Part shown: positions 8,520 through 63,960 of the stretch, one piece after another
How positions within the stretch are numbered: position 1 is the stretch's first letter
How the letters are laid out: every line of letters begins with the position of its first letter
DNA from: Kiritimatiellia bacterium
Lineage (GTDB): Bacteria > Verrucomicrobiota > Kiritimatiellia > UBA8416 > JABMPJ01
Direction of reading: 5' to 3'
Assembly: GCA_030745755.1 (NCBI GenBank)
Contig: JASLOA010000034.1
Span: 10,071-74,070 of the forward strand
Length of the DNA stretch: 64,000 bases
The notes under the pieces: generated by a model
What the model saw: only the letters and a program-made list of their open reading frames with translations
Told to the model about the DNA's origin: nothing
Databases searched by the model: none
Program-made: the position numbers and the translations under genes

Positions 8520-10328
8520 CTACCTGGGCTTCCGTGAATTCTTGCGTGTCTTGGCTTTGCCTGGCTTGCCCTTGCTTGGTTTACGCTTGCCGGGCTTGCC
8601 TGCCTTGGCTTTGACACGACGCTCAGTGCGTTTGGTGCGTTTGCTTTTCAGTTGGTCGTCGACCGGTTCGACGCGTACGTCGCGGCCGCCGACACGGGCC
8701 TTGCTCAGCATGTGCATGATCGGCTCGGCGTCCTCTGGCGCTATCTCGAAGAAGGAGTAGCGGCGCATGATGTCGACCTTCCGGATCGGCACCTTGCGGC
8801 CGCATTCCCGGTTGATCAGGTCGCCCAGCTTCTTGGGATTGATGCCATCGAGTCGGCCCAGGTTGATGAACATGCGGGCATCACGGGGTGATTGAGGTGG
8901 GGCTGGGCGCTCGGTCTGCACGCTGTGCTCGGTCTGCTCGGCCTGTTTCCGGGGTGTCGGCGTCTTTGGGGCCTTGGCGGGTTCAGCGGGTCGCTCGGTC
9001 TGTGTGCCGGGACCGCGATGGTGTTCGTCGCTGTAGTACTTGAGAAGGTTGCTGAACTCCAGCGCCATGAAACGTTTAACGATCTCTTCCTTGGGCATGC
9101 CTTCCAGGGTGGCATTGATCGCGGGCAGGTAGGGGTCGATCTGTCGATGGTCGATCTCCACGTTGCGCATGCGGTCAACCAGGCTGAAGAGCTGTGCTTC
9201 GCAGATCTGGTAGCCTGACGGCACGTTCCGGAAGTTGAATGTGGTGCCGATCATCTTCTGGATGCGCTTCACTTTCCCTCTCTCACGCATGTTGACGATG
9301 ACCACGGAGACACCGCTCTTGCCGGCGCGGCCTGTGCGCCCGCTGCGATGGGTATAGCTGTTCAGATCGTCGGGAAGATTGAAGTTGATCACGTGGGTGA
9401 GGTCATTGACATCCAGCCCGCGTGCGGCCACGTCGGTCGCCACCAGCATCTGGATGCTGCGCGTACGGAATTTCTGCATGACCCGGTCACGCTGGGCCTG
9501 CGAGAGATCGCCATGGATGGCATCGGCACTGTAGCCATCACGAATAAGCCAGTCGGCGATGCCTTGTGTATCCTGGCGCGTGCGGCAGAACACGATGGCG
9601 TACATGTCGGGGTAATAGTCGCAAATACGTTTCAGGGCCAGGTAGCGATCGCGTTGATGGACGACGTAGCACTCATGCGAGACGTTCTCGGCGCCTGCGT
9701 TGCGCTGTCCCACCGTAATCTCTTCGGGATGATCCATGTAGTTTTTGGCAATGGCCGCCACCTGGCGTGGCATTGTGGCCGAGAAAAGGAGTGTGTGAGC
9801 GCTATCGGGTACGCCGGCAAGGATCGCTTCCAGGTCCTCCTGGAATCCCATGTTGAGCATCTCATCGGCTTCATCGAGAATGACGCGTTCGATACCTGAG
9901 AGGTCGACGCGTTTGCGGCGCATAATGTCGAGCATCCGACCCGGCGTGCCGACAATCACGTGGACGCCGCGCTTCAGGGCTCTGAGCTGACCATCGATGG
10001 GGGTGCCCCCGTAGACCGCCAGGATGCTGATGCCCTTTGTGCAGCTCGCAAAGGCTTGCATATCGCGCGTGATCTGTACGCACAACTCCCGGGTCGGACA
10101 GAGGACGAGGGCCTGGGGTGATCGCTCATCACGCGTGAGCATCGTGAGGATAGGCAGGCCGAAGGCGGCTGTCTTGCCCGTGCCGGTCTGGGCCAGGGCC
10201 ACCACGTCGCCCTTGTTGTCGAGCAGTCGGGGAATCACCTGCGCCTGGACAGGGGTGGGGGACTCAAAGCCGAGGCGCGATATCCCCTCGAGCAGTTCGG
10301 GCGATAGGCCCAGTTCGTTGAATGTCAT
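8520..10328 (-). CDS. deaD: DEAD-box ATP-dependent RNA helicase (DeaD/CsdA-like) with long basic C-terminal tail
   Basis: AQTGTGKTAAF, PTRELCVQ, DEAD, SAT, HRSGRTGRAG motifs; K/R-rich C-terminus. Confidence 0.85.
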   Translation of the reverse strand: MTFNELGLSPELLEGISRLGFESPTPVQAQVIPRLLDNKGDVVALAQTGTGKTAAFGLPILTMLTRDERSPQALVLCPTRELCVQITRDMQAFASCTKGISILAVYGGTPIDGQLRALKRGVHVIVGTPGRMLDIMRRKRVDLSGIERVILDEADEMLNMGFQEDLEAILAGVPDSAHTLLFSATMPRQVAAIAKNYMDHPEEITVGQRNAGAENVSHECYVVHQRDRYLALKRICDYYPDMYAIVFCRTRQDTQGIADWLIRDGYSADAIHGDLSQAQRDRVMQKFRTRSIQMLVATDVAARGLDVNDLTHVINFNLPDDLNSYTHRSGRTGRAGKSGVSVVIVNMRERGKVKRIQKMIGTTFNFRNVPSGYQICEAQLFSLVDRMRNVEIDHRQIDPYLPAINATLEGMPKEEIVKRFMALEFSNLLKYYSDEHHRGPGTQTERPAEPAKAPKTPTPRKQAEQTEHSVQTERPAPPQSPRDARMFINLGRLDGINPKKLGDLINRECGRKVPIRKVDIMRRYSFFEIAPEDAEPIMHMLSKARVGGRDVRVEPVDDQLKSKRTKRTERRVKAKAGKPGKRKPSKGKPGKAKTRKNSRKPR

Positions 10329-10464: not shown

Positions 10465-10809
10465 TTACCAGCGATTGTCGCGGCGACCGCCGCCACCACC
10501 ACCGCCACCACCATAACCGCCACCGCCACCGCCGCCGCCGTAGCCACCACCGCCACCGCTGTTGCGGGGCTTGGGCTGCGACTCGTTAACGCGAAGGGCG
10601 CGACCATCACAGTCGTTTCCGTTCAGCGCGTTGATGGCTGCATCCGCCTCGGCCTTGTCCGGCATCTCAACGAAACCGAATCCCTTGGAGCGACCTGTCA
10701 TCCGGTCCATGATCACGCGTGACGATGTCACGGTGCCATGTGCGGAGAAGAGGTCCTGGAGTGTGTTATCATCTACCGAGTACGGCAGGTTTCCGACGTA
10801 GATATCCAT
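10465..10809 (-). CDS. RRM-type glycine-rich RNA-binding protein (cold-shock-type Rbp)
   Basis: MDIYVGNLPYSV...KGFGFVEM RNP motifs; GGGYGGGGG tail; SD ggagatatc upstream of the ATG at 10809. Confidence 0.85.
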   Translation of the reverse strand: MDIYVGNLPYSVDDNTLQDLFSAHGTVTSSRVIMDRMTGRSKGFGFVEMPDKAEADAAINALNGNDCDGRALRVNESQPKPRNSGGGGGYGGGGGGGGYGGGGGGGGGRRDNRW

Positions 10810-11273
10810 TATGATATCTCCTTGCTTCTGTCTGTCATGCTTCTTCTGTTCCCCCGACCAAGCACGATGACACAATGCAAAGAATCGGCGTCGGTCTTCC
10901 TTGACCGAATTCGGATAGTGGCATGGACAGCCAAGGAATGCAACCACGATTCACAGTCTTTTTGCGGCTATACGTGAAGGGCATGAGCTGACCATCGATC
11001 CGTGCTTCAGGGCAGTGCGCGCGGATTCAGCGGCCGGGGCCTGCTCTGCGGCTGCCGAGAATTACTCCGTCGCTGAAGTAGCGTACACGACAGCGGATGG
11101 ACTGTCTCCACCCGTCCAGTCCCCACCCGTCCCTAAGTAACTCGCTGGACAGGGCCAGCCCTGCTGCTATGCTCACCCAGAGCGAGAAGCGTTTGCTCGT
11201 TATCACCGGTATGGCCGTGGATATGAAGATCTCAATAACAGGTTGGATGCAGAAATACTAAGGAGGAATAGAC

Positions 11274-11451: not shown

Positions 11452-12855
11452 TTACGTAAGGAGTGCTTTCTTGTAGCGCCGGGAGATGGCTGAGTAGGCG
11501 AGGGTGCAGAGGATCAGGTTCAGGGCCCAGGTCCAATTCATCATGTTGCTGCTTCGCTCTGTTGAGTCATACAAAACGCCGAAGTATCCGAGGGGGCTGC
11601 ATATGGCAAAGTCGCTGCTGTCGAATACGCCCGCCAGGATGAGGGGGAGAATGGCGTAGAGCAGACCGATGAACGCGATCAGGATATGAATCTTCGGGCT
11701 GACGGGGCGGTAGACCTGTACGAGCTCGAAGAGCAGAACATAGAAGAGCGCGAAGAGAGTAAGCGTGATCAGCCATACAACGGCATGGGCCAGTGAGATG
11801 CCGCAGACCAATCCGCACGGGAGACCGGTCACGAGGGCGAGCGCCAGCAGGACGAACACGACCCGCAGGTTGGATTGCATCAGTGTGAAGCGCAGCAATC
11901 CAGGTCTCTGCGCCGGTTGGGCTGCCAACTCCTCGATGGTGCTGTTGAATGGGAGGAAGGAGCCCGCACCGGTCAGGATTGACAGGCCCAGCGAAAGCCC
12001 CCAGAACGTAATGCAGACTTCCTCCGCGTGGTTGTCCCTGAAATGGGGCGAGCACAGGCCGAGCAGGATCAAGAGCCCCCCCAGCATGAAGCCTGCCGCG
12101 CCGCGGGCGGTAAACATGGGCGCCTCTTCAACCCGAAACTGCCGGCAGATCCCCTTGAAAACCCACACGGACAGGTAAAGGGCGATGGCGCTGATCAGAA
12201 CCAGGCCCCGCGTCTCCCATGCCATGAAGGGAATGGTGAAATCCGCAAGGCCGTCCGTATCCATGAGACTGGCCACGATGCTGATGAAGGGGCCTATCAA
12301 CATGAAGCCAAGAAACACGACCACAATCGGTGACGTCGTGCGCTGGTTCTCGCTCACGCGCTGGGCCACCGACGCCAGGAGCGCGAGAAGATTCATTGCG
12401 ATGCTGATGCTGAGAATCAGGAAGATCAGTTCCACCAGAACGCCGACGGGTACCCGGGCAAACAAGGCGCTCACAACGATGAGGAAGAATGTGATCGCAC
12501 CCAGCAGGTAAGCCACAAGATTCTTGCCGATCACAATACCGACCGTCTTCTTCCATGGCGGTAGAGGGAGGAGCTTGAAGAAGTCGTAAGACTTGTCTCG
12601 CCGCTCATCCCGAATGGCGGAGGCCACGTTAATGGAGGTCCAGATCCACAGGACCAGGATCTGGAGCGTGGTGAACTGGGCGAACAGAGATTGGCACATG
12701 CCGTCGAGATCGACACCCGCTGATTCGCTGTAGGCTGCCAGTGTGATCAGGAGCATCAGGACGGCAATCGTGGCGTAGATGCCCACGTAGATGCCGAACT
12801 GGCGCGGGCGCATCAGGCTGTAACGGAATCGCTCGATGAGAGGGTTGTTAAACAT
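11452..12855 (-). CDS. Polytopic membrane permease of an ABC-2-type transporter
   Basis: About 468 aa with many TM segments; start overlaps the upstream ATPase stop by 8 nt. Confidence 0.6.
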   Translation of the reverse strand: MFNNPLIERFRYSLMRPRQFGIYVGIYATIAVLMLLITLAAYSESAGVDLDGMCQSLFAQFTTLQILVLWIWTSINVASAIRDERRDKSYDFFKLLPLPPWKKTVGIVIGKNLVAYLLGAITFFLIVVSALFARVPVGVLVELIFLILSISIAMNLLALLASVAQRVSENQRTTSPIVVVFLGFMLIGPFISIVASLMDTDGLADFTIPFMAWETRGLVLISAIALYLSVWVFKGICRQFRVEEAPMFTARGAAGFMLGGLLILLGLCSPHFRDNHAEEVCITFWGLSLGLSILTGAGSFLPFNSTIEELAAQPAQRPGLLRFTLMQSNLRVVFVLLALALVTGLPCGLVCGISLAHAVVWLITLTLFALFYVLLFELVQVYRPVSPKIHILIAFIGLLYAILPLILAGVFDSSDFAICSPLGYFGVLYDSTERSSNMMNWTWALNLILCTLAYSAISRRYKKALLT

Positions 12856-13789
12856 TCTGGTCCTCCTGGCCTGAGATCTGCACAAAGACGTCTTCGAGGC
12901 TCATCTCCTCCGTGGCAAAGGTCACGACGTCGAGCCCGGCCTCCACGAGTTGTCGGTTCAGCATCGCCAGCGCATTCCGGTCTTCCGGCGCGGTCACGAT
13001 GAGATCGTTGCCGTCAGATGATGAGAGCGAGTACTGGTCTGACGATTCGATGATGTGCGCGGCTTTCCCGGCATCGGCCAGGACCGATATGCGTACCTTG
13101 CTTTCGCCGGCCGCGCGTCTCTGGACTTCATCCACATCGCCAAACACCTCCATCCTGCCCTTGTTCATGATGGCGATGTGCGAGCAGAACCCGGATAGCT
13201 CGGTCAGGATGTGGGACGAGATGAGGACGGTTCGACCTTCCTCACTCAGCTTCTTCAGAACCCGGCGCAGTCCGATGCGCGCTTCCGGGTCCAGGCCGGA
13301 GGCCGGTTCATCGAGCAGGAAGAGATCAGGCTCATGGACAATCAGGGACGCCACGCCGAGGCGTTGGACCATGCCGCGCGACAGGTGGCGAATCAGGCTG
13401 TCGGCCTTGTCGGTTAGGTTGACGTACTCCAGGGCTGTTCGGCTTCTGTCGTTAGCCGTGGTGACGTCGGTGCCGTAAGCGCGGGCAAAGAACACCAGGC
13501 ATTCTCGTAGTGTAAGGTCCTTGTAGAGATTGAAGAAATCAGGCAGGTACCCGATGCGCTTCCGGATATCCAGGTAGTCGCGCTGAACATCGCAGCCCAA
13601 TACCGCCGCACTGCCGGAGGTGGGGGAGAGCAGCGTGCCCAGCATGCGCAGGAGTGTGGTCTTGCCGGCGCCGTTCGGTCCAATCAGGCCGACGACCTGT
13701 CCGGCGTCAACATGGATGCTCACATCCCGGACGGCGACCAGTGTGCCATAGTCCTTGCGCAGGGATTGGGTCTGAATCACGGATGACAT
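12848..13789 (-). CDS. ABC transporter ATP-binding protein
   Basis: GPNGAGKTT, LSRGMVQRLGVA, LFLLDEPASGLD; start taken at MSSVIQ (13789) rather than the upstream ORF extension. Confidence 0.85.
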   Translation of the reverse strand: MSSVIQTQSLRKDYGTLVAVRDVSIHVDAGQVVGLIGPNGAGKTTLLRMLGTLLSPTSGSAAVLGCDVQRDYLDIRKRIGYLPDFFNLYKDLTLRECLVFFARAYGTDVTTANDRSRTALEYVNLTDKADSLIRHLSRGMVQRLGVASLIVHEPDLFLLDEPASGLDPEARIGLRRVLKKLSEEGRTVLISSHILTELSGFCSHIAIMNKGRMEVFGDVDEVQRRAAGESKVRISVLADAGKAAHIIESSDQYSLSSSDGNDLIVTAPEDRNALAMLNRQLVEAGLDVVTFATEEMSLEDVFVQISGQEDQNV

Positions 13790-13938
13790 CGTATTGTCCT
13801 TTCCGCCGTGCCGACACGGCCACGGCATCCATTCTGAAACTCTGCGCACTGTTGCGCGTTTGACGCGGCGGGTCAATCGCATTCCCGTTTTAGGCTTTTG
13901 TGCTGTTGCCCGTTGGGACGAGTTGGCTCAAGCAGCGT

Positions 13939-14131
13939 GGTGTCAACAACTCGGCGCAGCATCCTGCGGCGATCTCACGCCATCTGCCGGTTTTTCGGAA
14001 GGTTCGCGGGCAAGAGCCCTGCTCACCCACCGAGAAAACCACCATCTGGCGCAAGCTCACCACAGGATGCTGCTCTGATCCGAGTTGTTGCCACGTTTGC
14101 CACACCACGCCGCCCTTGCGGGCGGACGAGG
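13939..14131 (+). repeat. Family-3 ~195-nt palindromic element, copy 1 (candidate structured ncRNA or regulatory element)
   Basis: Aligns with 20925-21120; outer stem caacaactcggcgcagcatcctg / caggatgctgctctgatccgagttgttg; conserved core and 3' hairpin gccgcccttgcgggcgg. Confidence 0.6.
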
Positions 14132-14362
14132 TGTCTGGTGTGGAATGGGGCAAGCCATTCATTGTGCACTCTGTCTGCACTGCTGTCATTTCGCAATCGA
14201 ACAACGCAAAGAACTCCATTTGAGTTGGAAGGGCCGTGTCAACGTCAGTATCCTGAAAAAGGGCGTTGACCTGAAGTAAGGTAATGCCCTACTCTGGGCA
14301 GAACCGGACAGGAGTGGACACGGGCGGACATATGGTTGTGTGTTGCGGCGTTGGAGGGGTAG

Positions 14363-15079
14363 ATGCCTGAAGAGAGTGCTGTTAATGGTGAGATGACCGA
14401 TGCGGTCATGACATTGCAGGAGGTTGCGGCCTATCTGAAGGTCTCCGAAAAGACCATTACGCGCATGGTGCAGGCGGGGGAACTGCCCGGACTGAAGGTG
14501 TCCAACCAGTGGCGCTTTATCCGTGCGGCAATCGATGACTGGCTGACCCGCCGCATGTACAACCAGGCCAGTGAGCAACTGGCTGAAGTCATCCAACCTC
14601 CCCACGAAGAGCTCTCGCTCCCTCTGCTGCTTACGCCGAACCGCATCATCCTGGATCTTCAGCCGGGGCCGCAGGAAGATGTCCTTGCTCGACTTGTTGC
14701 GCCGTTGATCAAAGAGGGCACGGTCACGGATCCGACCCGCTACATGGCGGCACTGATCGGACGCGAGAAGATCGTATCTACTGCGATCGGCGATGGTGTC
14801 GCGATCCCGCATGCGCGCGATCCGGAACATTCGGCTCTCGCAAAGAGCTGCATGGCGCTGGGCATCTGCCGCGATGGCATGCCGTTTGGAGCGATCGATA
14901 AGAAGCCGACGAAGCTATTCTTCCTGATCGGCGGCACGTCGACCGAGGATCATCTACGCCTGGTGGCGCGGACGATGTTGATGTTACGGAAGCCAGACTT
15001 CATTGATGCTCTGGTGGCAGCTCAAACCAGAGAGGTCGCGTGTGAGCTCGTGGCGACCGCAAGCGGGGTGGGGGCATGA
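14363..15079 (+). CDS. Excisionase/MerR-type HTH domain fused to a PTS EIIA type-2 (PtsN-like) domain
   Basis: N-terminal MTLQEVAAYLKVSEKTITRMVQAGELPG HTH; C-terminal GDGVAIPHAR EIIA-2 active-site motif. Confidence 0.75.
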   Translation: MPEESAVNGEMTDAVMTLQEVAAYLKVSEKTITRMVQAGELPGLKVSNQWRFIRAAIDDWLTRRMYNQASEQLAEVIQPPHEELSLPLLLTPNRIILDLQPGPQEDVLARLVAPLIKEGTVTDPTRYMAALIGREKIVSTAIGDGVAIPHARDPEHSALAKSCMALGICRDGMPFGAIDKKPTKLFFLIGGTSTEDHLRLVARTMLMLRKPDFIDALVAAQTREVACELVATASGVGA

Positions 15080-19693: not shown

Positions 19694-20079
19694 GAGGTGG
19701 ATGTGTCGGCTTCGTCGGGCGTGACGTCAGATTCCGGCGGATGTTCGCCACGAAGCAGCGCGATCTCCTGCGAGAGCTTTTTGATCTGGCGGCGATGTTG
19801 GGAAATGACCAGCGAGAACTGGAGCGTCATGAGCAGAAGGACAGAGAACGCGATGAGAAAAAGCGTGGTGGTGATGGTGACCGCGCCGATCAGGTCGGAC
19901 AAATGCACCAGCCAGTCGTAGCGTATCACAACCAGCAGCGCGCCGACCGCAATCCCGATCCAGATCCAGCAATAGGCAATATCGAGGCGTCCTTTTTGCA
20001 CGAGCCGGATGATGAGTCCGAGCAGGGCAAGCCCGAGAATGATGGAAGCAACGAACTGCCGTGGTTGGATCATACTCAT
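19690..20079 (-). CDS. DUF2304 small membrane protein
   Basis: Four hydrophobic helices plus charged C-tail; start MSMIQ gives an ATGA overlap with the upstream GT stop. Confidence 0.6.
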   Translation of the reverse strand: MSMIQPRQFVASIILGLALLGLIIRLVQKGRLDIAYCWIWIGIAVGALLVVIRYDWLVHLSDLIGAVTITTTLFLIAFSVLLLMTLQFSLVISQHRRQIKKLSQEIALLRGEHPPESDVTPDEADTSTS

Positions 20080-20849
20080 GATAGTGCTCCCTGCGAGGAG
20101 GACCGGATGCGCCATTGTCGCCACTGGAAAACGTTAAGCAGCACCATGAAGAGCGAGAGCAGCATCTTGATGGCATAGTAGATCGGCTTGAGACCTGAAT
20201 GCATGGACGCGCCCCCTTCGCGGGAACGCATGCTGACGGGCAGTTCCTTGACCTTCAGGCCCGCCATGTGGGCCATGACAATGACGTCGGAGTCGGGGTA
20301 GTCGCAGGGGAACACGCCGCTGGAGAAGAACGTGATGGCGCGCCGGGATAGCGCTTGCATGCCCGAGGTGGGGTCGGTGGTTCTCAGACCGGTGAGCACG
20401 CGGATGATACCGGCAAAGAGCGCGTGTCCAGCTCGCCGTATGACCGGCGTCTCGGGGTCAGGCCCGTTGAGATGACGTGAGCCGCTCGCGATATCGGCTT
20501 CCCCGTTGCGGACCGCCGCCAAGAGTGGGGGGAGCTGGTCCGGCGGATGCTGGCCGTCGGCATCGATCTGGAGGACCGGGCCATAGCCATTGCGGTTGGC
20601 GTAGAGATAGCCGGTTTCGAGTGCGGCGCCGTAGCCCAGGTTGCAGCCGTGGGAGAGCACGATGGCGCCGGCCGCGCGCGCGATGCGGGCCGAGTCGTCT
20701 GTCGAGGCATCGTCGATGACCGCAATGCCCGCCTCGGGGATGGCGCGCTTGAGGTCTTCGATCACAGCGGCGACACGTGGCCCCTCGTTGTAACAGGGCA
20801 TCAGAACCAGCGGGCGATACAGTGCGTCAGTGTCCATGAGTAGAGGCAT
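20076..20849 (-). CDS. GT2 polyprenol-phosphate sugar transferase (DPM1/ArnC/GtrB-like)
   Basis: VLMPCYNEG ... IDDASTDD ... DADGQH motifs; start set at MPLLMD because the upstream ORF extension is the family-3 element. Confidence 0.75.
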   Translation of the reverse strand: MPLLMDTDALYRPLVLMPCYNEGPRVAAVIEDLKRAIPEAGIAVIDDASTDDSARIARAAGAIVLSHGCNLGYGAALETGYLYANRNGYGPVLQIDADGQHPPDQLPPLLAAVRNGEADIASGSRHLNGPDPETPVIRRAGHALFAGIIRVLTGLRTTDPTSGMQALSRRAITFFSSGVFPCDYPDSDVIVMAHMAGLKVKELPVSMRSREGGASMHSGLKPIYYAIKMLLSLFMVLLNVFQWRQWRIRSSSQGALS

Positions 20850-20924
20850 GGTAGCGGGATAGGGCAGTGAGTGTAAAGGCTGTGGTGTGCTTGTGTGGTG
20901 CTTGTGAATGGGGCGAGACCCGGG

Positions 20925-21120
20925 GAGTGCCAAGAACTCGGCGCGAAATGCGGCGGCGATCTCACGCCATCTGCCGGTTTTTCGGAGGCTTCGCGGGCAG
21001 GAGCCCTGCGAATCCTCCGAGAAAACCGCCATCTGGCGCAAGCTTGCCACCGCATTTCGCTCAATCCGAGTTCTTGGCACGTTTCACACACCGCGCCGCC
21101 CTTGCGGGCGGACCGCGGTG
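20925..21120 (+). repeat. Family-3 element, copy 2
   Basis: Aligns to 13939-14131 with compensatory stem changes; lies in a divergent intergenic region. Confidence 0.6.
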
Positions 21121-21226
21121 TTGAATTGCGGAAGCGCCCGCTGCGCGGGCTCATCTTTCACCTGCCGCGGGTTGGGCGCGGAGACACATCATTGCACCTA
21201 TTCAGTAGACGTGGTAGTCTTACGCC

Positions 21227-21487
21227 ATGCCTGAGATTTGTAGATTCCTTGGTATTGTTATTGCGATTTACTGGAAAGAGCATGGCGTTCCCCATTTTCA
21301 TGCGAAGTACCAGGGCTGTCGTGCCTCTTTCGCTATTGAGGACTTCCGGTTGCTTGAGGGTAAGCTTCCGCCGCGGGTTACCGGCCTAGTGCTTGAGTGG
21401 GCGGCTTCCCATCGCGACGAGCTCCTCGGGGACTGGGAACTGGCCATGCAGAAGAAGCCGCTCAAACGCATCGCGCCACTCGAATAG
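21227..21487 (+). CDS. DUF4160 family protein
   Basis: MPEICRFLGIVIAIYWKEHGVPHFHAKY... characteristic N-terminus. Confidence 0.7.
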   Translation: MPEICRFLGIVIAIYWKEHGVPHFHAKYQGCRASFAIEDFRLLEGKLPPRVTGLVLEWAASHRDELLGDWELAMQKKPLKRIAPLE

Positions 21488-23091: not shown

Positions 23092-23165
23092 TGGAGCGGG
23101 CGAGGGGAATCGAACCCCTATAGTCAGCTTGGAAGGCTGAAGTTCTACCATTGAACTACGCCCGC
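23092..23165 (-). tRNA. tRNA-Gly (anticodon UCC), CCA encoded
   Basis: GCGGGCGTAGTTCAATGGTAGAACTTCAGCCTTCCAAGCTGACTATAGGGGTTCGATTCCCCTCGCCCGCTCCA; clean cloverleaf, U33, A37, discriminator U. Confidence 0.9.
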
Positions 23166-25092: not shown

Positions 25093-25172
25093 AAGAAGTC
25101 GTTTGTCATTTCGAGCGAAGCGAGAAATCTCAAGTCCATGTTGGAGTAGAGATCCCTCGGCTTCGCTCGGGA
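25093..25172. repeat. Family-1 palindromic element (tgtcatttcgagcgaagcgagaaatctc ... gagatccctcggcttcgctcgggatgaca)
   Basis: Inverted arms read directly. Confidence 0.8.
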
Positions 25173-25242
25173 TGACACACGAATTGTGCAGAACGCAGTT
25201 GTGATGCAGTACACTGGGTTGGTCAACGAGTGAAGGAGCAAG

Positions 25243-26238: not shown

Positions 26239-26265
26239 GGGCGTGTTGCCTCAAAAGAGATCCCT

Positions 26266-26348
26266 CGACTTCGCTCGGGATGACAGTCTCGGAATTACCG
26301 GGTTGCCTGGGGAGTTGTCATGCTGAGCTTGTCGAAGCATCTCCTCTG
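26266..26348. repeat. Family-1 palindromic element (gagatccctcgacttcgctcgggatgaca ... tgtcatgctgagcttgtcgaagcatctc)
   Basis: Read directly. Confidence 0.8.
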
Positions 26349-29632: not shown

Positions 29633-30853
29633 TTGAAAGTCAGAGCCTTTAGAGGGGTGCATCCAACGGCAGACGTGGCCGCCCAGGTCGCCAGTGTACC
29701 GTATGATGTAGTAAACGCGGAGGAGGCACGTGAGATGGCTGCGGGGAATCCTCACAGTTTCTTGCACGTGGTCCGGGCCGAGATCGATCTAGCCGAGGAC
29801 GCCGACCATTACTCATCCGAGGTCTATCAGCAGTCGGCCCGTGCCCTGGCCAGGATGCGGGCCGACGGTGTCCTGGTGCAGGACCAGGATCGGCAGTTGT
29901 ACGTCTATGAGCTGACCATGGGGGACCATGCCCAGTGCGGCGTTGTGGCCTGCTGTGCGGTCTCGGACTATGACGACGGTACGATCAAGCGGCACGAGCA
30001 GACGCGTGAGGAGAAGCTGCGCGATCGCGTCACGCTGGTCGATACGCTCGGCGCCAACAGCGGCCCCGTATTTCTGACCTACCGGGATTCGGCCGGTGTC
30101 GACGCCCTGGTTGCCCAGGCGCGTGCGACGGAGCCCTTGATCAGTCTGGAGCGCGAGAACGGCAATCGTCACACGATCTGGACCGTTCCGGTGCCGGCGG
30201 ACATGGAGGCGGCCTTCGCCAGGGTACCGGCGGCCTACATTGCGGACGGGCATCATCGCGCTGCCGCCGCCGCCGAAGTGGCCAAGCTTCGTCGCGACAG
30301 AAATCCAGAGATGGATAATGCCGGAAGCGACTGGTTCCTGACCGTACTCTTTCCTGCCAGCCAGATGCGCATCATGCCCTATAACCGCGTGGTGCATGAT
30401 CTGAACGGCCGCACCTCTGCTGAATTCCTTGAGGCGCTGTCCGGCGTGGGCGACGTGAGTTCGGGGAGCGCCGAGGTGCCGGAGACCCGTGGGAGCGTGG
30501 GCATCTATATCGAAGGACAGTGGCATCGCTTGACCTGGCATGAGGGCGTGGTCGACCCGTCCGATGAAGTGGGACGGCTGGATGTGAGTGTGTTGCAGTC
30601 GCGCGTCCTGGAACCGGTCCTGGGCATAGCCGATCCGCGGCGCGATGAACGTATCGCTTTCGTGGGCGGTATCCGCGGCATCGGTGAGTTGGAGCGGCTG
30701 GTGGATGGCGGGGAGGCGGCCGTGGCGTTTGCGATGCATCCGGTAGAGGTCGAAGATCTTATCGCGGTCTCAGACGCCGAACGCCTGATGCCCCCCAAGA
30801 GCACCTGGTTTGAACCGAAGTTGCTTTCAGGTCTTCTTGTCCATGTGTTCTGA
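29633..30853 (+). CDS. DUF1015 family protein
   Basis: C-terminal MPPKSTWFEPKLLSGLL DUF1015 signature; TTG start after SD aaggagag. Confidence 0.75.
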   Translation: MKVRAFRGVHPTADVAAQVASVPYDVVNAEEAREMAAGNPHSFLHVVRAEIDLAEDADHYSSEVYQQSARALARMRADGVLVQDQDRQLYVYELTMGDHAQCGVVACCAVSDYDDGTIKRHEQTREEKLRDRVTLVDTLGANSGPVFLTYRDSAGVDALVAQARATEPLISLERENGNRHTIWTVPVPADMEAAFARVPAAYIADGHHRAAAAAEVAKLRRDRNPEMDNAGSDWFLTVLFPASQMRIMPYNRVVHDLNGRTSAEFLEALSGVGDVSSGSAEVPETRGSVGIYIEGQWHRLTWHEGVVDPSDEVGRLDVSVLQSRVLEPVLGIADPRRDERIAFVGGIRGIGELERLVDGGEAAVAFAMHPVEVEDLIAVSDAERLMPPKSTWFEPKLLSGLLVHVF

Positions 30854-31090
30854 CCTTTTCGACAGGTCCCCGCGACCTTGGTCGTAGGAACCGGTGCATT
30901 CGGAGTTGCTGGTCTATGTGTTCTAGGTTTTTGGATAGGTCCCCCGCGACCTCGGTCGCGGGAACCGCTGCATTCGGAGTTGCTGGTCTATGTATTCTAG
31001 GTTTTTGGACAGGTCCCCCGCGACCTTGGTCGTGGGAACCGGAGATCTCAGATTCCCGCGACCCAAGGTCGCGGGGGGCATTCCCCATTC
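30851..31090. repeat. Tandem repeat, about 62 bp x 3 plus a partial unit; each unit holds a palindrome CCCGCGACC..GGTCGCGGG; the first unit overlaps the DUF1015 stop
   Basis: Units ...ttctaggtttttggataggtcccccgcgacctcggtcgcgggaaccgctgcattcggagttgctggtctatgt... read directly. Confidence 0.8.
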
Positions 31091-31141: not shown

Positions 31142-32908
31142 GTGATACATCCTGAATCAGAGTGGAGTTATGCGGGTCCGCGGGCACACCATGTCATCGC
31201 GGCATCGCTGGCGTGTGTCCTGTCCGTGCTCGTGCATGTGGGGCTACTGATTGGTATTCTGACGCTCGACATCCCGCTGCCCGGCATGTTGAGCAATATC
31301 CGGCTGCCCGAGCGGTTGCGCCCCATGAAGATGGGTGACGTACGACGTGCGCCTGAGTCGCCCATGGATGCGGCGGAAGACAGCCCGAAGCCGACCATCG
31401 AGGATGTCGTGGACACCGCCGAGAAATTGGGGGTACCGGTCCCGGCTTCGCTACTGGCCCCGCCGGCCGCTCCTGTCGGTGGTACCGGGACCGAAACGCC
31501 CAACCTGGCCGAGCCCGAGCTACCCGCTCCGCCCGAGGTGTGGCAGCCGCGCCAGGAGATCGTGGCCATCGAGAAGACGGTCTCCAAGCTGGATGTAACA
31601 CCCATTGACCGCATCACGATTCCTGCCCTCGAGCGCACCATCGCCGCGCCCGACATTGCGTTGCCGGTTCAACGCTCGCTGGCCGCTCCGCCGCCCCTGC
31701 AGAGCGATGGGCCGGGCAAGCAGGCCCTGTCAAGGACTCCCGCCAGCGACAGTATTGTGCTGCCGGCCCCTCTGCAGGATATTGAACAGCCCCGCCCGGC
31801 CGCCGTTCCAAGCGACGCCGTTGTGGAGGAGGGGACCGAGCTGTTCAAAGAGACGCTGGAAGAGATTACCCCGTTGAAGCCTATCGAGCGGGTGCTGGCG
31901 GCGCAGGCGACCACGTACGAAAGCCGCTGGGACCGGAGATATGGCTACTTCAAAGTTGAGATCACCGGGCTCGGCCCCGATGTGCTCCCGGTTATGCCCA
32001 AGGACGTGATTCTCATGCAGGACTGTTCCGCAAGTATGGCGGAGCAGCGGCTCTTCTTCTGCAGGCAAGGCATCAATGCTTGCCTGGAGTTCCTCGGCGA
32101 CGATGACCGTTTTGAGATTATCGCGTTTCGGCAGAAGGCAGATCGTTGTTTCGGGGCACTGGTGGACAACGAGGCATCGAATGTCGCCAAGGCGCGTGAG
32201 TTCATCAAGGGCATGCGTCCCGGGGGCAACACAGATATCCTTAACTCCATTCGTGAGCTGGTGGCGCTGCCACGTGAAGCCGGTAGGCCGATCGTCGTGC
32301 TGATCGTAACCGACGGGCTGGCGACAGCCGGGCAGACCGGAAGCTCCGGTATCATTGGCGAGTTCAGCCAGATGAATGACGGTATGCTGTCGATCTACAC
32401 AATCGGCACCGTGCAAACGGCTGACGAGTACCTGCTTGACCTCCTGAGCTACAGCAATCGCGGCGAAGTCATCCCGCTGGGCAGTGGGCGTTGGAGCATT
32501 CCCGGCTCCATTCGTGATGCGATGGATAAGATCAGTCGCCCCGTGCTCGCCAACGTTGATTTCCGGTTTCCTGTCGGAGCAAAGTGTGAGGTCTACCCGG
32601 TCCAAACCAGCAACCTCTACCTTGATCGGCCACTGGTGCTGTACGGGCGCTACCCACGCGGTGAAGAGCGCGTGACGTTTCAGGCTGTTGGGGAAGGCAG
32701 CACCGCCAAGTCCGATATGCTCTTCGATGTCCCGCTGGCTGAAGGTGTCGGCAGTGGCGACAAGACGCTGCGCAGTGAGTGGGCCAAACAGAAAGTCTAC
32801 CACCTCATAGGCCAGTATGCCCGCCGCCAGGACCCCGATACCCTCCGCGACATCCGCGACACCGCCCGCGAATACAAGGTCAACGTTCCACACCGGGGGC
32901 GGTTTTGA
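31142..32908 (+). CDS. Membrane-anchored von Willebrand factor A domain protein with a Pro-rich (TonB-like) linker
   Basis: N-terminal TM; P/A-rich linker; MIDAS DCSASM...GNTDI...VTDG. Confidence 0.7.
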   Translation: MIHPESEWSYAGPRAHHVIAASLACVLSVLVHVGLLIGILTLDIPLPGMLSNIRLPERLRPMKMGDVRRAPESPMDAAEDSPKPTIEDVVDTAEKLGVPVPASLLAPPAAPVGGTGTETPNLAEPELPAPPEVWQPRQEIVAIEKTVSKLDVTPIDRITIPALERTIAAPDIALPVQRSLAAPPPLQSDGPGKQALSRTPASDSIVLPAPLQDIEQPRPAAVPSDAVVEEGTELFKETLEEITPLKPIERVLAAQATTYESRWDRRYGYFKVEITGLGPDVLPVMPKDVILMQDCSASMAEQRLFFCRQGINACLEFLGDDDRFEIIAFRQKADRCFGALVDNEASNVAKAREFIKGMRPGGNTDILNSIRELVALPREAGRPIVVLIVTDGLATAGQTGSSGIIGEFSQMNDGMLSIYTIGTVQTADEYLLDLLSYSNRGEVIPLGSGRWSIPGSIRDAMDKISRPVLANVDFRFPVGAKCEVYPVQTSNLYLDRPLVLYGRYPRGEERVTFQAVGEGSTAKSDMLFDVPLAEGVGSGDKTLRSEWAKQKVYHLIGQYARRQDPDTLRDIRDTAREYKVNVPHRGRF

Positions 32909-36087: not shown

Positions 36088-36118
36088 GGCAGACATGGGG
36101 AGCTGATGTGAGGGGGCT

Positions 36119-36240
36119 TGAACCCAGGCATCCTGCCTGGGCTATGATGGAGCACCCCGTTGGGGTGCGGGAAGGAACGACTCGGGAAAGGTCGACCCCA
36201 AAGGGGTCATACATCATAGCCCAGCGAGAATCGCTGGGAT
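36119..36240 (+). repeat. Family-2 multi-hairpin element, copy A
   Basis: cccaggcatcctgcctggg / ctatgatg ... cacccc..ggggtg ... gacccc..ggggtc ... catcatag / cccagcgagaatcgctggg. Confidence 0.75.
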
Positions 36241-36301
36241 CAGTAGAAGAAGGAAGGACGCCCCCTGATCTTCGCGGTTACGACTACTTGGGAGATGAAA
36301 A

Positions 36302-37321: not shown

Positions 37322-37356
37322 AGTAATCACGAAGGGAACAAAGGACACGAAGGACA

Positions 37357-37463
37357 TGAACCCAGGCATCCTGCCTGGGCTATGACGTGGCACCCCTTTG
37401 GGGTGCGGGAACGAGCGACCCCAACGGGGTCGGACATCATAGCCCAGCGAGAATCGCTGGGAC
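37357..37463 (+). repeat. Family-2 multi-hairpin element, copy B
   Basis: About 90% identical to copy A. Confidence 0.75.
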
Positions 37464-37518
37464 TAGTCGAAGACGGCCGGAGACTCCATCCGTGGCGAAC
37501 ATCTTCAGGAGCTGAGAA

Positions 37519-39918: not shown

Positions 39919-40336
39919 TCCGAGAGAGTTTTTGCGAACAATGCCAGGGGCACCAGACCCATGTTATTCTGGTACCGGACCGCGCGAGGTCAGACGTTGA
40001 GATGGTAGACCGACAGCGCGGATGATGCGAATGAAGATGGGACTTTCGGGTAGGAAGCCATCTATGAGACCAAGGATTCAGTTAGTCACTAAAAGAGGAC
40101 GGTGAGCCGACAGACAGAGTCCACATTGACATAAGGTATTTGAAATACCCTGCCTTGTTCGCTAACAGGCAAAAATCTCTAACCTTCTATTGTATTAGGG
40201 AGCTTGAATACGGCGTGGAGCGGATTCGCAAGAATCCCGGAAGCGACGACTAGAGCACCCACCTCGAATGCGAGGTTTAAGAGATTAACGCCCTTACGAT
40301 TATGGTGGGGTATTTTTCTGCCCCGTGGAAACGGAT

Positions 40337-42310: not shown

Positions 42311-42414
42311 GTGTCATCCCGAGCTTGTCGAGGGATCTCCACATTATCGAATACGCTGGAGATTGACTTCGGCAAGCTCAGCACAGGCTCTCGGCTTCGC
42401 TCGGAATGACAGAC
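42311..42414. repeat. Family-1 palindromic element (variant arms gtcatcccgagcttgtcgagggatctc ... gctctcggcttcgctcggaatgaca)
   Basis: Read directly. Confidence 0.7.
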
Positions 42415-50800: not shown

Positions 50801-50907
50801 ATTCCCAGGGGTTTCGCCCCTGGCTATGATGTTAGACCCCTTTGGGGTCCTTTCGGAACACCCCAAAGGGGTGTCCCATCATAGCCCAGCGAGAATCGCT
50901 GGGACCA
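50801..50907 (+). repeat. Family-2 multi-hairpin element, copy C (diverged, with compensatory changes)
   Basis: cccaggggtttcgcccctgg / ctatgatg ... gacccctttggggtc ... caccccaaaggggtg ... catcatag / cccagcgagaatcgctggg. Confidence 0.7.
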
Positions 50908-50984
50908 GATCGTATTCATCCCAACCCCGTCTTACCGAGTGCCCTCTCTCTCCTCGCGCCTATGCTCTACACCGGTTTCGCCGG

Positions 50985-51221
50985 TCAGTAGTTGAACAGG
51001 TCGGCCAGGCTGTACGTCTGACCTGTGGCGGCGTTCAGGGCGTTCACGAGTTTGAACTGCACGTTGCGGGTCAGGCGGCGGCCTTTGCAGCCACGCGCCA
51101 CCATCTTGTGTGTGATCTGCTCAGTCGATGCCTCCACAAGATCGTGAGCCTTCAGTTCCTTCTCAAGCATGATCGTCGCGATCGGCTGCTCTCCCAGGTT
51201 GCGTTCGATATCTCTGTGCAT
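50985..51221 (-). CDS. Hypothetical 78-aa protein, intact copy of a paralogue pair that flanks the low-GC island
   Basis: MHRDIERNLGEQPIATIMLEKELKAHDLVE...LTRNVQFKLVNALNAATGQTYSLADLFNY; second diverged copy at 56229-56432. Confidence 0.5.
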   Translation of the reverse strand: MHRDIERNLGEQPIATIMLEKELKAHDLVEASTEQITHKMVARGCKGRRLTRNVQFKLVNALNAATGQTYSLADLFNY

Positions 51222-51419
51222 AGTCTCCTGTCAACATCATGAAGTGGATTGTTTTGAGCCGGAATGGTAGCAAATGCAGCCACCGCTGTCACGAGCCGTG
51301 ACGTGAAGAGTAAACAGGACTATCCCCACTTTTCAAGCCTTGGGAAGCGGATAGCCCTGTAAAGACTGGGATTTCGTGAGTGAGTAAGTGAAACAGGGCT
51401 TTGCCGTCAAGCCAGGCCT

Positions 51420-51500
51420 GAGATGCCTCGGCTTCGCTCGGCATGACCAGAAACCTTAGGAAACTGTCATCCCGAGCGGAGTCGAGGGATCTCCTATGCG
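51420..51500. repeat. Family-1 palindromic element
   Basis: agatgcctcggcttcgctcggcatgac...tgtcatcccgagcggagtcgagggatctc. Confidence 0.8.
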
Positions 51501-55711: not shown

Positions 55712-56188
55712 CTATACTTTCGCCAAGATGACGAGGTAGTTCTTGCCGTACTTCTTGGCGCATTTCGGACAGGTCGTGTAGAAGAAGTAGAGCTTTTCCG
55801 CTTTCTTGCCCTGGCTCGATGCGTAGGTGTTCATCTCCTCGATCCACTGGCGCATGTTCTTGTAGGGACCTTCGAAGACTTTGGTCAGGAATGTCCCGGA
55901 GATGGTTGCCATGTTGGCGCCTGGCACATCGTCGCTCGCGGCGATGTAGACGTCGGCTCCCCATAGCGAGTTTTCGTCTGACAGAACCAGTGGTGGCTCT
56001 TCGAACGCTTCGACGGCTTTGATGGGCTCGACATTGCGTGTCATCACGGCGCCGAAGTTCAATGGGATGTGCAAGAAGCTCTTCACGCGATCCTTGACGA
56101 AGAGCTTCTCATCCCAATGCAGTTCCTTGCCTTCCCACGGCTCCGGCTCGAAGCGGGGACAGCATTCATCTGTGTCACATGTGCCCAT
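55712..56188 (-). CDS. Hypothetical protein with split four-Cys motif (N-terminal C-x4-CC, C-terminal CPKC)
   Basis: 158-aa ORF; MGTCDTDECCPRF ... YTTCPKCAKKYG. Confidence 0.55.
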   Translation of the reverse strand: MGTCDTDECCPRFEPEPWEGKELHWDEKLFVKDRVKSFLHIPLNFGAVMTRNVEPIKAVEAFEEPPLVLSDENSLWGADVYIAASDDVPGANMATISGTFLTKVFEGPYKNMRQWIEEMNTYASSQGKKAEKLYFFYTTCPKCAKKYGKNYLVILAKV

Positions 56189-56228: not shown

Positions 56229-56432
56229 TCTTATCAACAGTTGAATAGATCGGCCATGCTGTATGTCTGACCTGTTGCCGCATTCAGGGCGTTCACGATC
56301 GTGGTCTGCACATTACGGGTGAGGTGTCGGCCTTTGCAGGGCGGCCACGAGATCGTGAGCCTTCAGCTCCTTCTCACGAATGATCTGCGCGACCGGCTGT
56401 TCGCCAAGGTTGCGTTCGATGTCTCTATGCAC
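56229..56432 (-). pseudogene. Frameshifted paralogue of the 78-aa gene at 50985-51221 (~38-nt deletion; GTG start; N-terminal 39 codons then stop; C-terminus conserved in another frame)
   Basis: DNA alignment about 80% identical to copy 1 with one gap; translation VHRDIERNLGEQPVAQIIREKELKAHDLVAALQRPTPHP*, then CKGRHLTRNVQTTIVNALNAATGQTYSMADLFNC in a shifted frame. Confidence 0.5.
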
Positions 56433-60744: not shown

Positions 60745-60800
60745 ACAGGGCTCGATCTCATTCTGGCAAGTGCGACCGGGTCATATGCGTATGGTCTGGC

Positions 60801-60920
60801 GGAGATGCCTCGGCTGCGCTCGGCATGACAGGAACCTTTTCTGAGAAATGTCATCCCGCCTGCCCGCCATAGCCCAGCGGGCGACGGCGGGAGCGAAGCC
60901 GAGGGATCTCCTATGCGACC
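60801..60920. repeat. Family-1 element with a nested ~35-nt palindromic insert sharing catagcccagcg with family 2
   Basis: ggagatgcctcggctgcgctcggcatgaca...tgtcatcccg[cctgcccgccatagcccagcgggcgacggcggg]agcgaagccgagggatctc. Confidence 0.7.
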
Positions 60921-62088: not shown

Positions 62089-62205
62089 AGAAGGGTTCAA
62101 GGTTCGCGGTTCAAGGCTCAAGGTTGGATGGCTCCTCAGCCGTGTTAGAAGCCCTGAACCTGGTGTGGTGTTTCGCAAAAAGGACTCTCTAAATCTGTAA
62201 GGTTC

Positions 62206-62278
62206 TGTCATTCCGAGCGAAGCGAGGAATCTCAGCCCATGTTGAGGCAGAGATCCCTCGACTTCGCTCGGGATGACA
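62206..62278. repeat. Family-1 palindromic element flanked by ggttcaagg / ccttgaa short repeats
   Basis: ctgtcattccgagcgaagcgaggaatctc...gagatccctcgacttcgctcgggatgaca. Confidence 0.8.
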
Positions 62279-62348
62279 CACGAGTTATACAAACGCAATT
62301 GTGAGATACGACACTAGAACTCATGAACCTTGAATCCTCAAACCTGAC

Positions 62349-63845: not shown

Positions 63846-63960
63846 CAGTGATCAGTAGCCAGTGATCAGTAATCAGTGAGGACCTGATATACTACTGATC
63901 ACTGATGACTGACTACTGATCACTTGAGCATCAGGGAGAGCAGACGTTTAGTTCAAAGGA
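63846..63960. repeat. Palindromic simple-sequence block (cagtgatcagta / tactgatcactg) after yajC, terminator-like
   Basis: Read directly. Confidence 0.5.

Follow-up and report, generated by a model that had tools for sequence, protein, structure and literature searches.

The window, i.e. the whole 64-kb stretch of Kiritimatiellia DNA that was analysed, carries housekeeping genes only. No gene for a transposase, RAYT, integrase, or reverse transcriptase was found in it, and no transposase was detected in ~250 kb of related loci with Pfam annotation either. The region has also been assembled from JGI sample 3300035250 and in the Kiritimatiellia MAG GCA_030747025.1 (contig JASLLN010000002.1). 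Two of its intergenic regions harbor one copy each of a palindromic element. Copy 1 is situated between the genes for an ABC transporter ATPase and a protein with HTH_17 and PTS_EIIA_2 domains (HTH-EIIA), copy 2 between the genes for a family-2 glycosyltransferase (GT2) and a DUF4160 protein (Table 1). The initial annotation had reported two copies in the same orientation, their arms and terminal hairpin, and these divergent neighbors; all of this was recovered in the present analysis. Further upstream, a gene for a glycine-rich RRM_1 RNA-binding protein (10465-10947, - strand) adjoins a DbpA-type DEAD-box helicase gene (8520-10328, - strand); this gene pair is conserved beside the HTH-EIIA gene in some relatives (L085, L087).

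Table 1. Features of the two element copies, their neighbors and related repeats. Numbers are positions in the window; further copies are listed by locus handle.
Feature	Position	Strand	Description	Basis
ABC transporter ATPase	12848-13789	-	left of copy 1; context only	Pfam
Copy 1	13937-14135		best boundaries; same strand as copy 2	
Copy 1 HP1	13940-14094		155-nt imperfect hairpin	folds; A4 columns 4-158; covariance model match 210.9 bits
Copy 1 spacer	14095-14101		GTTTGCC	alignments A3/A4
Copy 1 HP2	14102-14134		core 14110-14126 CCGCCCTTGCGGGCGG; outer stem ACACC/GGTGT	fold and alignment
Copy 1 weak hairpin	14143-14160	+	GAATGG-GGCAAG-CCATTC; without T-tract	
HTH_17 + PTS_EIIA_2 protein	14363-15079	+	right of copy 1; context only	Pfam
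GT2	20076-20837	-	left of copy 2; start 20801 or 20837, depending on gene call	
Copy 2	20924-21122		best boundaries; same strand as copy 1	
Copy 2 HP1	20927-21080		154-nt hairpin; best preserved of the window copies	folds; covariance model match 223.8 bits
Copy 2 spacer	21081-21087		GTTTCAC	alignment A4
Copy 2 HP2	21088-21121		core 21096-21112; outer stem ACACCGCG/CGCGGTGT	fold and alignment
Copy 2 HP3	21127-21159	+	GCCCGC-TGC-GCGGGC, then TCATCTTTC	terminator scan
DUF4160 protein, then DUF2442	21227-21487	+	right of copy 2; context only	
New copy	L089/L090		other metagenomes	ENA ERZ930068, ERZ930070
New copy, ychF locus	L091/L092/L098/L100		other metagenomes	Logan runs; ENA ERZ24794656
REPIN-like doublets	1533-1612, 25104-25190, 26252-26344, 42312-42411, 51419-51498, 60786-60915, 62191-62291		separate repeat family	

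The two window copies are 84-87% identical and differ by one 1-nt and one 6-nt indel (blastn E 2e-54). Searches with blastn, nhmmer, and a covariance model detected only these two within the 64 kb; the chance expectation for a 19-mer from the core amounts to 0.01 occurrences. Each unit comprises an imperfect hairpin of ~155 nt (HP1), a 7-nt spacer, and a GC hairpin of ~34 nt (HP2). The inverted repeat spans all of HP1, the outer 14 pairs (GTGCCAAGAACTCGG/CCGAGTTCTTGGCAC) being nearly invariant, and a quasi-palindromic box, GCCATCTGSC, is present in both arms. Similarity between the copies begins exactly at the base of HP1, with unrelated upstream flanks. On the other side, the conserved unit extends 3' of the right arm through the spacer and HP2, and its ends are therefore asymmetrical. 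Both window copies share the HP2 core GCCGCCCTTGCGGGCGG. The unit is polar: the HP1 foldback is followed by the conserved spacer (CACGTTT...) and HP2, and at least two copies add a terminator-like third hairpin (HP3). Copy 1 is the most decayed of all copies found, with 69 of 75 Watson-Crick pairs in the whole model. The weak hairpin downstream of it may be a degenerate remnant of HP3, and its downstream region shows weak local similarity to that of copy 2 (score 11).

Further copies were found via a gene-calling artefact. Gene callers had placed a spurious ORF of 109 aa over copy 1 (- strand), and comparison of its peptide with 1.84 billion representative proteins yielded two more spurious ORFs (P0069 and P0070), whose contigs, derived from other metagenomes, carry two new copies of the element. 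A genuine coding ORF was rejected: both arms covary, and the peptides are ~55% identical at ~80% DNA identity. Altogether, four distinct copies with 77-85% pairwise identity are present at four unrelated loci, namely the two window sites, L089, and the ychF locus (L091/L098). The L089 contig is 899 bp long, and its flanking ORFs are without Pfam matches. Copy density is two in ~88 kb of the source species and one in 21 kb of L098; no copy was found in ~100 kb of other relatives.

Broader searches added nothing to this set. A covariance model (R1) run over ~545 kb of sequence retrieved the known copies only, and a profile built from the spurious-ORF peptides gave nothing new. Among GTDB representative genomes, a 21-mer (CGCCATCTGCCGGTTTTTCGG) had a single chance match inside a helicase gene, and an 18-mer had 70 matches in JGI metagenome contigs, all of them attributable to chance. 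Neither word is family-wide, and these exact-word negatives carry little weight because both words are conserved in the window copies only, not in L089 or L091. Two degenerate-pattern scans of viral contigs and blastn against plasmids and phages gave no match. Comparison with Rfam, which the initial annotation had proposed, returned no family for the element at the gathering threshold (Rfam 15); in E-value mode only generic long-hairpin miRNA models were reported (MIR1437 with 52 bits against a threshold of 168, mir-9441 with 26 against 91). Retron, 6S, SRP, and Y RNA were discarded as identities, with no Rfam signal at the element and no reverse transcriptase. Elsewhere in the window, only two gathering-level Rfam matches were obtained, a 6S RNA at 40144-40315 (+ strand, 66.6 bits) and a tRNA gene at 23095-23165 (- strand). 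Given the lack of Rfam, plasmid, and phage matches, the element represents a new, previously undescribed, apparently low-copy family in a Kiritimatiellia clade.

Each copy folds into a long hairpin followed by a small GC hairpin. Both strands fold far more stably than shuffled sequence, as RNA or as DNA, with z-scores for copies 1 and 2 of -7.6 and -11.9 on the + strand and of -10.7 and -14.9 on the - strand. Between the window copies, six stem pairs are changed on both sides and still pair, and six are changed on one side only. For the alignment of all four sequences (A4), RNAalifold proposed 75 pairs (62 in HP1, 13 in HP2), in which 96.3% of the cells form standard pairs and 17 pairs are changed on both sides in a compensatory manner. 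Not one of five measures was reached by any of 500 column shuffles, and sliding the partner by 1-3 columns left ~41% pairing and one to three compensated pairs. Compensated stretches include TGCGG/CCGCA, GGGAA/TTCCC, GGGAG/CTCCC, and CATCCTG/CAGGATG. The apical stem and HP2 covary as well (e.g. CCGCCC/GGGCGG vs CCGCGC/GCGCGG in HP2, whose helix has two pairs with compensatory changes across the copies). Measured against these controls, the extent of pairing and compensation means that the secondary structure is maintained. The initial annotation had proposed this from two copies; it holds for four and is well supported, if by these four sequences only.

All four copies agree in the placement of their internal loops and bulges, namely CA/CA, TC/TC, T·C, C·C, and, on the 3' arm, a bulge of 5-6 nt. 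They also have in common the invariant sequence CACGTTT, which covers the HP1 base and the spacer. Overall, 39% of the unpaired and 29% of the paired columns are variable; unpaired columns are hence not more conserved.

Downstream of HP2, HP3 is homologous in copy 2 and the ychF-locus copy: 15 bases are identical (TGCGGAAGCGCCCGC), and both versions have a GC stem with a T-rich tail; local alignment of the HP3 regions of copy 2 and L098 gave a score of 21. A consensus scan classified HP3 of copy 2 as terminator-like on the + strand (21136-21150 followed by TCATCTTTCA), and that of L098 conforms to the terminator pattern by eye (GCCCGCGC-GGA-GCGCGGGC followed by TTATTCTT). The scan detected no terminator at copy 1, and L089 has a different GC hairpin at the corresponding position. 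HP3 is therefore described as a putative intrinsic (Rho-independent) terminator in copy 2 and L098 only.

Other signals are found on the opposite strand. Folding of the - strand is favored over that of the + strand by 11-24 kcal/mol in each of the four copies, with 20 G·U pairs compared to 7. Alignment of the - strand comprises 79 pairs, among them seven in which only one side has changed (G-C/G·U), along with two tandem G·U pairs that do not vary; a single one-sided change is seen in the + strand alignment. Counted by site, nine favor the - strand and two the + strand, which is suggestive only (one-sided binomial ~0.03). Read on the - strand, the conserved loops TC/TC and CA/CA turn into tandem G·A and tandem G·U motifs, respectively. 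No conserved promoter was detected on either strand, where only two weak consensus matches at differing relative positions were obtained, and the copies share no promoter or flank sequence above noise. A sigma-54 promoter was considered and dismissed, as TGGCAC is present in copy 2 only and a -12 box is missing.

The genomic distribution of the element is illustrated by the ychF locus. Next to the L091 copy, ychF encodes a protein that falls into a 90%-identity cluster with a name derived from Kiritimatiellia MAGs. The same gene order is found in three lineages with YchF proteins of ~90% identity: ychF faces a convergent gene for a Cys/Met-PLP enzyme, followed by Rrf2, PALP, cupin, HhH-GPD, and MetRS. 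In L098, the region after ychF measures 495 nt and holds the complete element (HP1-HP2-HP3, 11056 to ~11293), starting 29 nt after the ychF stop codon. The corresponding region is 15 nt long in the window's own species (L095/L096; JGI 3300035250, GCA_030744355.1) and 54 nt long in L102-L105 (GCA_029935835.1 and others), in both cases without the element. Filled and empty sites are too diverged for base-by-base alignment. Two independent deletions could formally produce the same pattern; parsimony favors an insertion in the L098 lineage. A different palindromic element lies beside the ychF-locus copy (L098 11398-11475; GGAGGGGAGACCTTCC ... GCGAGCGAAGCGAAGC ... GGAAGGTCTCCCCTCC), and the 495-nt region has therefore gathered at least two hairpin repeats.

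For the HTH-EIIA gene beside copy 1, the nearest orthologues in relatives, with 82-85% aa identity, reside in other neighborhoods and are free of the element for 10 kb in either direction. Taken together, the filled and empty ychF sites and the element-free HTH-EIIA orthologues indicate dispersed insertion rather than a locus-specific regulator. An association with divergent promoters, as initially suggested, is accordingly true of both window copies but not of the family, since the ychF-locus copy is placed between convergent genes. The within-genome pair (84% identity) is no closer than the between-genome pairs, which fits spread from diverged masters and not local duplication. There is no sign of recent transposition, because even the closest pair is only about 84-85% identical. 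At the borders of the four copies, no consistent direct repeat was recognised that could represent a target-site duplication, and flank similarity did not exceed chance.

The element also leaves traces in assemblies. Logan short-read contigs from several runs break inside it, at window position ~13970 (L004, L006) and at ~20967 (L010, L011), as would be anticipated where a k-mer path is repeated or palindromic. In L009 1-262 (GCA_030744355.1, JASLQR010000129.1), the left flank and left arm of copy 1 are joined to the right part of copy 2. The junction is the shared 35-nt core, and the outer stem of the hybrid no longer pairs. Either the assembler produced a chimera here, or recombination between the direct copies has in fact deleted 7 kb.

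Several other repeats were observed in the window. A second, more abundant family consists of REPIN-like doublets in intergenic DNA, in which a unit of ~29 nt (GAGATSCCTCGRCTWCGCTCGGSATGACA) is combined with its inverse (TGTCATCCCGAGCGAAGCCGAGGGATCTC; Table 1). A composite palindromic repeat of ~130-145 nt (CCCAGGCATCCTGCCTGGGCTATGATG...ACCCCAAAGGGGT...CATCATAGCCCAGCGAGAATCGCTGGG) occurs at 36114-36258, 37352-37481, and 50813-50923; it lies between rplT, pheS, and pheT and recurs behind a DEAD-box helicase gene. A 74-nt unit is present three times in tandem, with 72-96% identity, at 30822-31042, just upstream of a VWA-domain gene (31142-32908). Direct copies with 82-86% identity, ~5.2 kb apart, at 50985-51220 and 56234-56431 may be paralogous gene fragments; the latter adjoins a Bact_hydrolase gene (55712-56188, - strand). 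Finally, a 31-nt GATCAGT-rich inverted repeat (90% complementary, 16-nt loop) directly follows yajC at 63847-63924.

The observations are best explained, with little better than even confidence, by a non-autonomous mobile hairpin repeat of the MITE/REPIN/bcr1 kind whose propagation requires the fold. This reading is based on the non-coding nature of the element, its full-length foldback, the unrelated intergenic sites, the filled/empty site, the assembly breaks, and the presence of other REPIN-like doublets. The element would be moved in trans by an enzyme encoded elsewhere, most plausibly one with strand-specific recognition of folded single-stranded DNA, like the HUH/Y1 transposases. If only copies that still fold were propagated, the compensatory pattern and the conserved mismatches and bulges would follow. 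Inserted behind or before genes, the element is probably co-transcribed, and would then form a very stable RNA hairpin plus terminator; side effects on the 3' end, stability, or RNase III sensitivity of neighboring mRNAs may result. Several points count against this reading: no target-site duplication was recognised, the window encodes no transposase, no cognate autonomous element is known, and the four copies found include no closely related pair. HP3 and the wobble asymmetry would also suit a function at the RNA level. Covariation of this kind had initially been taken to exclude a MITE. That conclusion is not upheld: the filled/empty pattern at ychF is that of an inserted element, compensatory changes on two sides are common in REPIN hairpins (PMC3116915), and the structure of the ~155-bp bcr1 is kept by base-pair compensatory changes (reviewed in PMC3184786).

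Use of the fold by the host, as a structured RNA module of ~200-240 nt (HP1 and HP2 with or without the terminator) acting as an sRNA or a cis-acting UTR element, is regarded as rather unlikely. Selection on the RNA fold would keep the long helix, and the module would be duplicated or transferred between loci. The strong covariation agrees with this proposal, and copies of the same genome that are as diverged as those of different genomes and nevertheless all fold suggest long-term maintenance. HP3, homologous in copy 2 and the ychF-locus copy, travels with the element, and the - strand offers its wobble asymmetry, its better folding in every copy, and the tandem G·A motif. However, HP3 is on the + strand and the wobble signal favors the - strand, so no one strand gathers all the evidence. 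A host RNA is further disfavored by the lack of a conserved promoter, of upstream similarity, and of an Rfam match, by the mixed locations (upstream of divergent genes in the window, downstream of ychF in L098), and by the empty orthologous ychF sites in sister lineages; with unpaired columns no more conserved than paired ones, no seed-like region is apparent. A new strand-specific class of structured nucleic acid in PVC bacteria, either a ~200-nt RNA of the - strand or the folded single-strand substrate or guide of an unrecognised mobilising enzyme, is thought unlikely. In either version, such a class would imply a fold under purifying selection across species while the element moves between loci.

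Compensatory evolution might also be mimicked by functionless palindrome correction, i.e. by template switching or gene conversion between the arms, which is deemed quite improbable. It would account for compensated changes in contiguous blocks (three of the stretches given above, TGCGG/CCGCA, GGGAA/TTCCC, and CATCCTG/CAGGATG), for an HP1 almost without one-sided intermediates on the + strand, and for the conserved C·C mismatch that has turned into a T-A pair in L091. Such homogenising should, though, erase the CA/CA, TC/TC, and T·C mismatches and the bulge, which persist throughout the four copies; covariation also extends to the small HP2 with its outer stem, and dispersal to new loci is left unexplained. 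The position of both window copies between divergent genes, in the same orientation, and the quasi-palindromic box in both arms could point to the alternative raised in the initial annotation, regulatory DNA that is restricted to divergent promoter regions and serves as an operator or a palindromic protein-binding site. This appears highly improbable for an element that is found past the ychF stop codon between convergent genes, is missing from orthologous promoters in relatives, is flanked by functionally unrelated genes, and has a 155-bp dyad far exceeding known operator sites. Integron attC sites were examined separately and rejected: a GTTRRRY/RYYYAAC core is lacking at both ends, genes of either orientation lie between the copies, and the window has no integrase.

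To our knowledge, Kiritimatiellia are represented almost only by MAGs, with hardly any description of their repeats and ncRNAs. The family provides a clean filled/empty-site example for a long foldback element whose structure is kept at ~20% sequence divergence, and, in a phylum that has received little study, it lends itself to a covariance-model survey and to metatranscriptome mapping. It may serve as a strain-typing marker, help to spot assembly breaks and chimeras in Kiritimatiellia MAGs, or offer a handle for finding the mobilising enzyme; the contig breaks it causes are a practical warning for MAG assembly in this clade. With its terminator and long dsRNA hairpin, it is also a candidate modulator of mRNA ends. 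Current concepts are unchanged by these findings, since Pseudomonas, Bacillus, and others are already known to carry hairpin repeats with compensatory changes.

Among known systems, the palindromic repeats Correia/NEMIS, ERIC, RUP, and Nezha are characterized by terminal inverted repeats and intergenic dispersal. Like these and other MITEs, the present element is non-coding and dispersed in intergenic regions, with inverted repeats forming a long stem-loop (PMC3184786). Classical palindromic repeats are, moreover, often co-transcribed with their neighbors (PMC3184786). Unlike MITEs, the whole element is a foldback with a non-palindromic 3' module, and it cannot be filed as a classical MITE because neither a target-site duplication nor a parent IS was found. 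SPRITEs are interspersed repeats with a terminator-like motif (PMC3184786), which HP3 of copy 2 and the ychF-locus copy resembles. They differ in length (~105 nt) and stem from an unrelated organism; HP3, in contrast, is an appendage to a 155-nt foldback, and the terminator-like hairpin is degenerate or different in two of the four present copies.

REPINs consist of two REP palindromes of ~20-37 nt, usually span 70-110 nt, and reach tens to hundreds of copies, with a RAYT gene flanked by REPs. The present element has arms of ~75 nt without a conserved short self-palindromic unit (only weak internal dyads of 3-4 bp are visible by eye), and was seen in low copy number, without a RAYT in the 64-kb window. 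It is, in turn, not fileable as a REPIN because it lacks short REP units and no RAYT was seen; the element works like both REPINs and MITEs. Its likeness to REPINs lies in being an intergenic hairpin with compensatory changes, whose conserved internal loops and strand asymmetry parallel those of REPs (PMC3116915, PMC8266576). The transposase TnpA-REP needs the conserved mismatches and bulges in REPs and acts on one folded DNA strand only (PMC8266576).

The last system compared is bcr1, a MITE-like repeat of the Bacillus cereus group. It belongs to an unrelated phylum and was compared by description, not by sequence. It is transcribed and flanked by 5-bp direct repeats, none of which were found for the present element, which in turn adds the asymmetric HP2 and the terminator-like HP3. 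Both form a long hairpin of ~155 bp, with compensatory changes and a distribution that is not conserved between related strains (PMC3184786).
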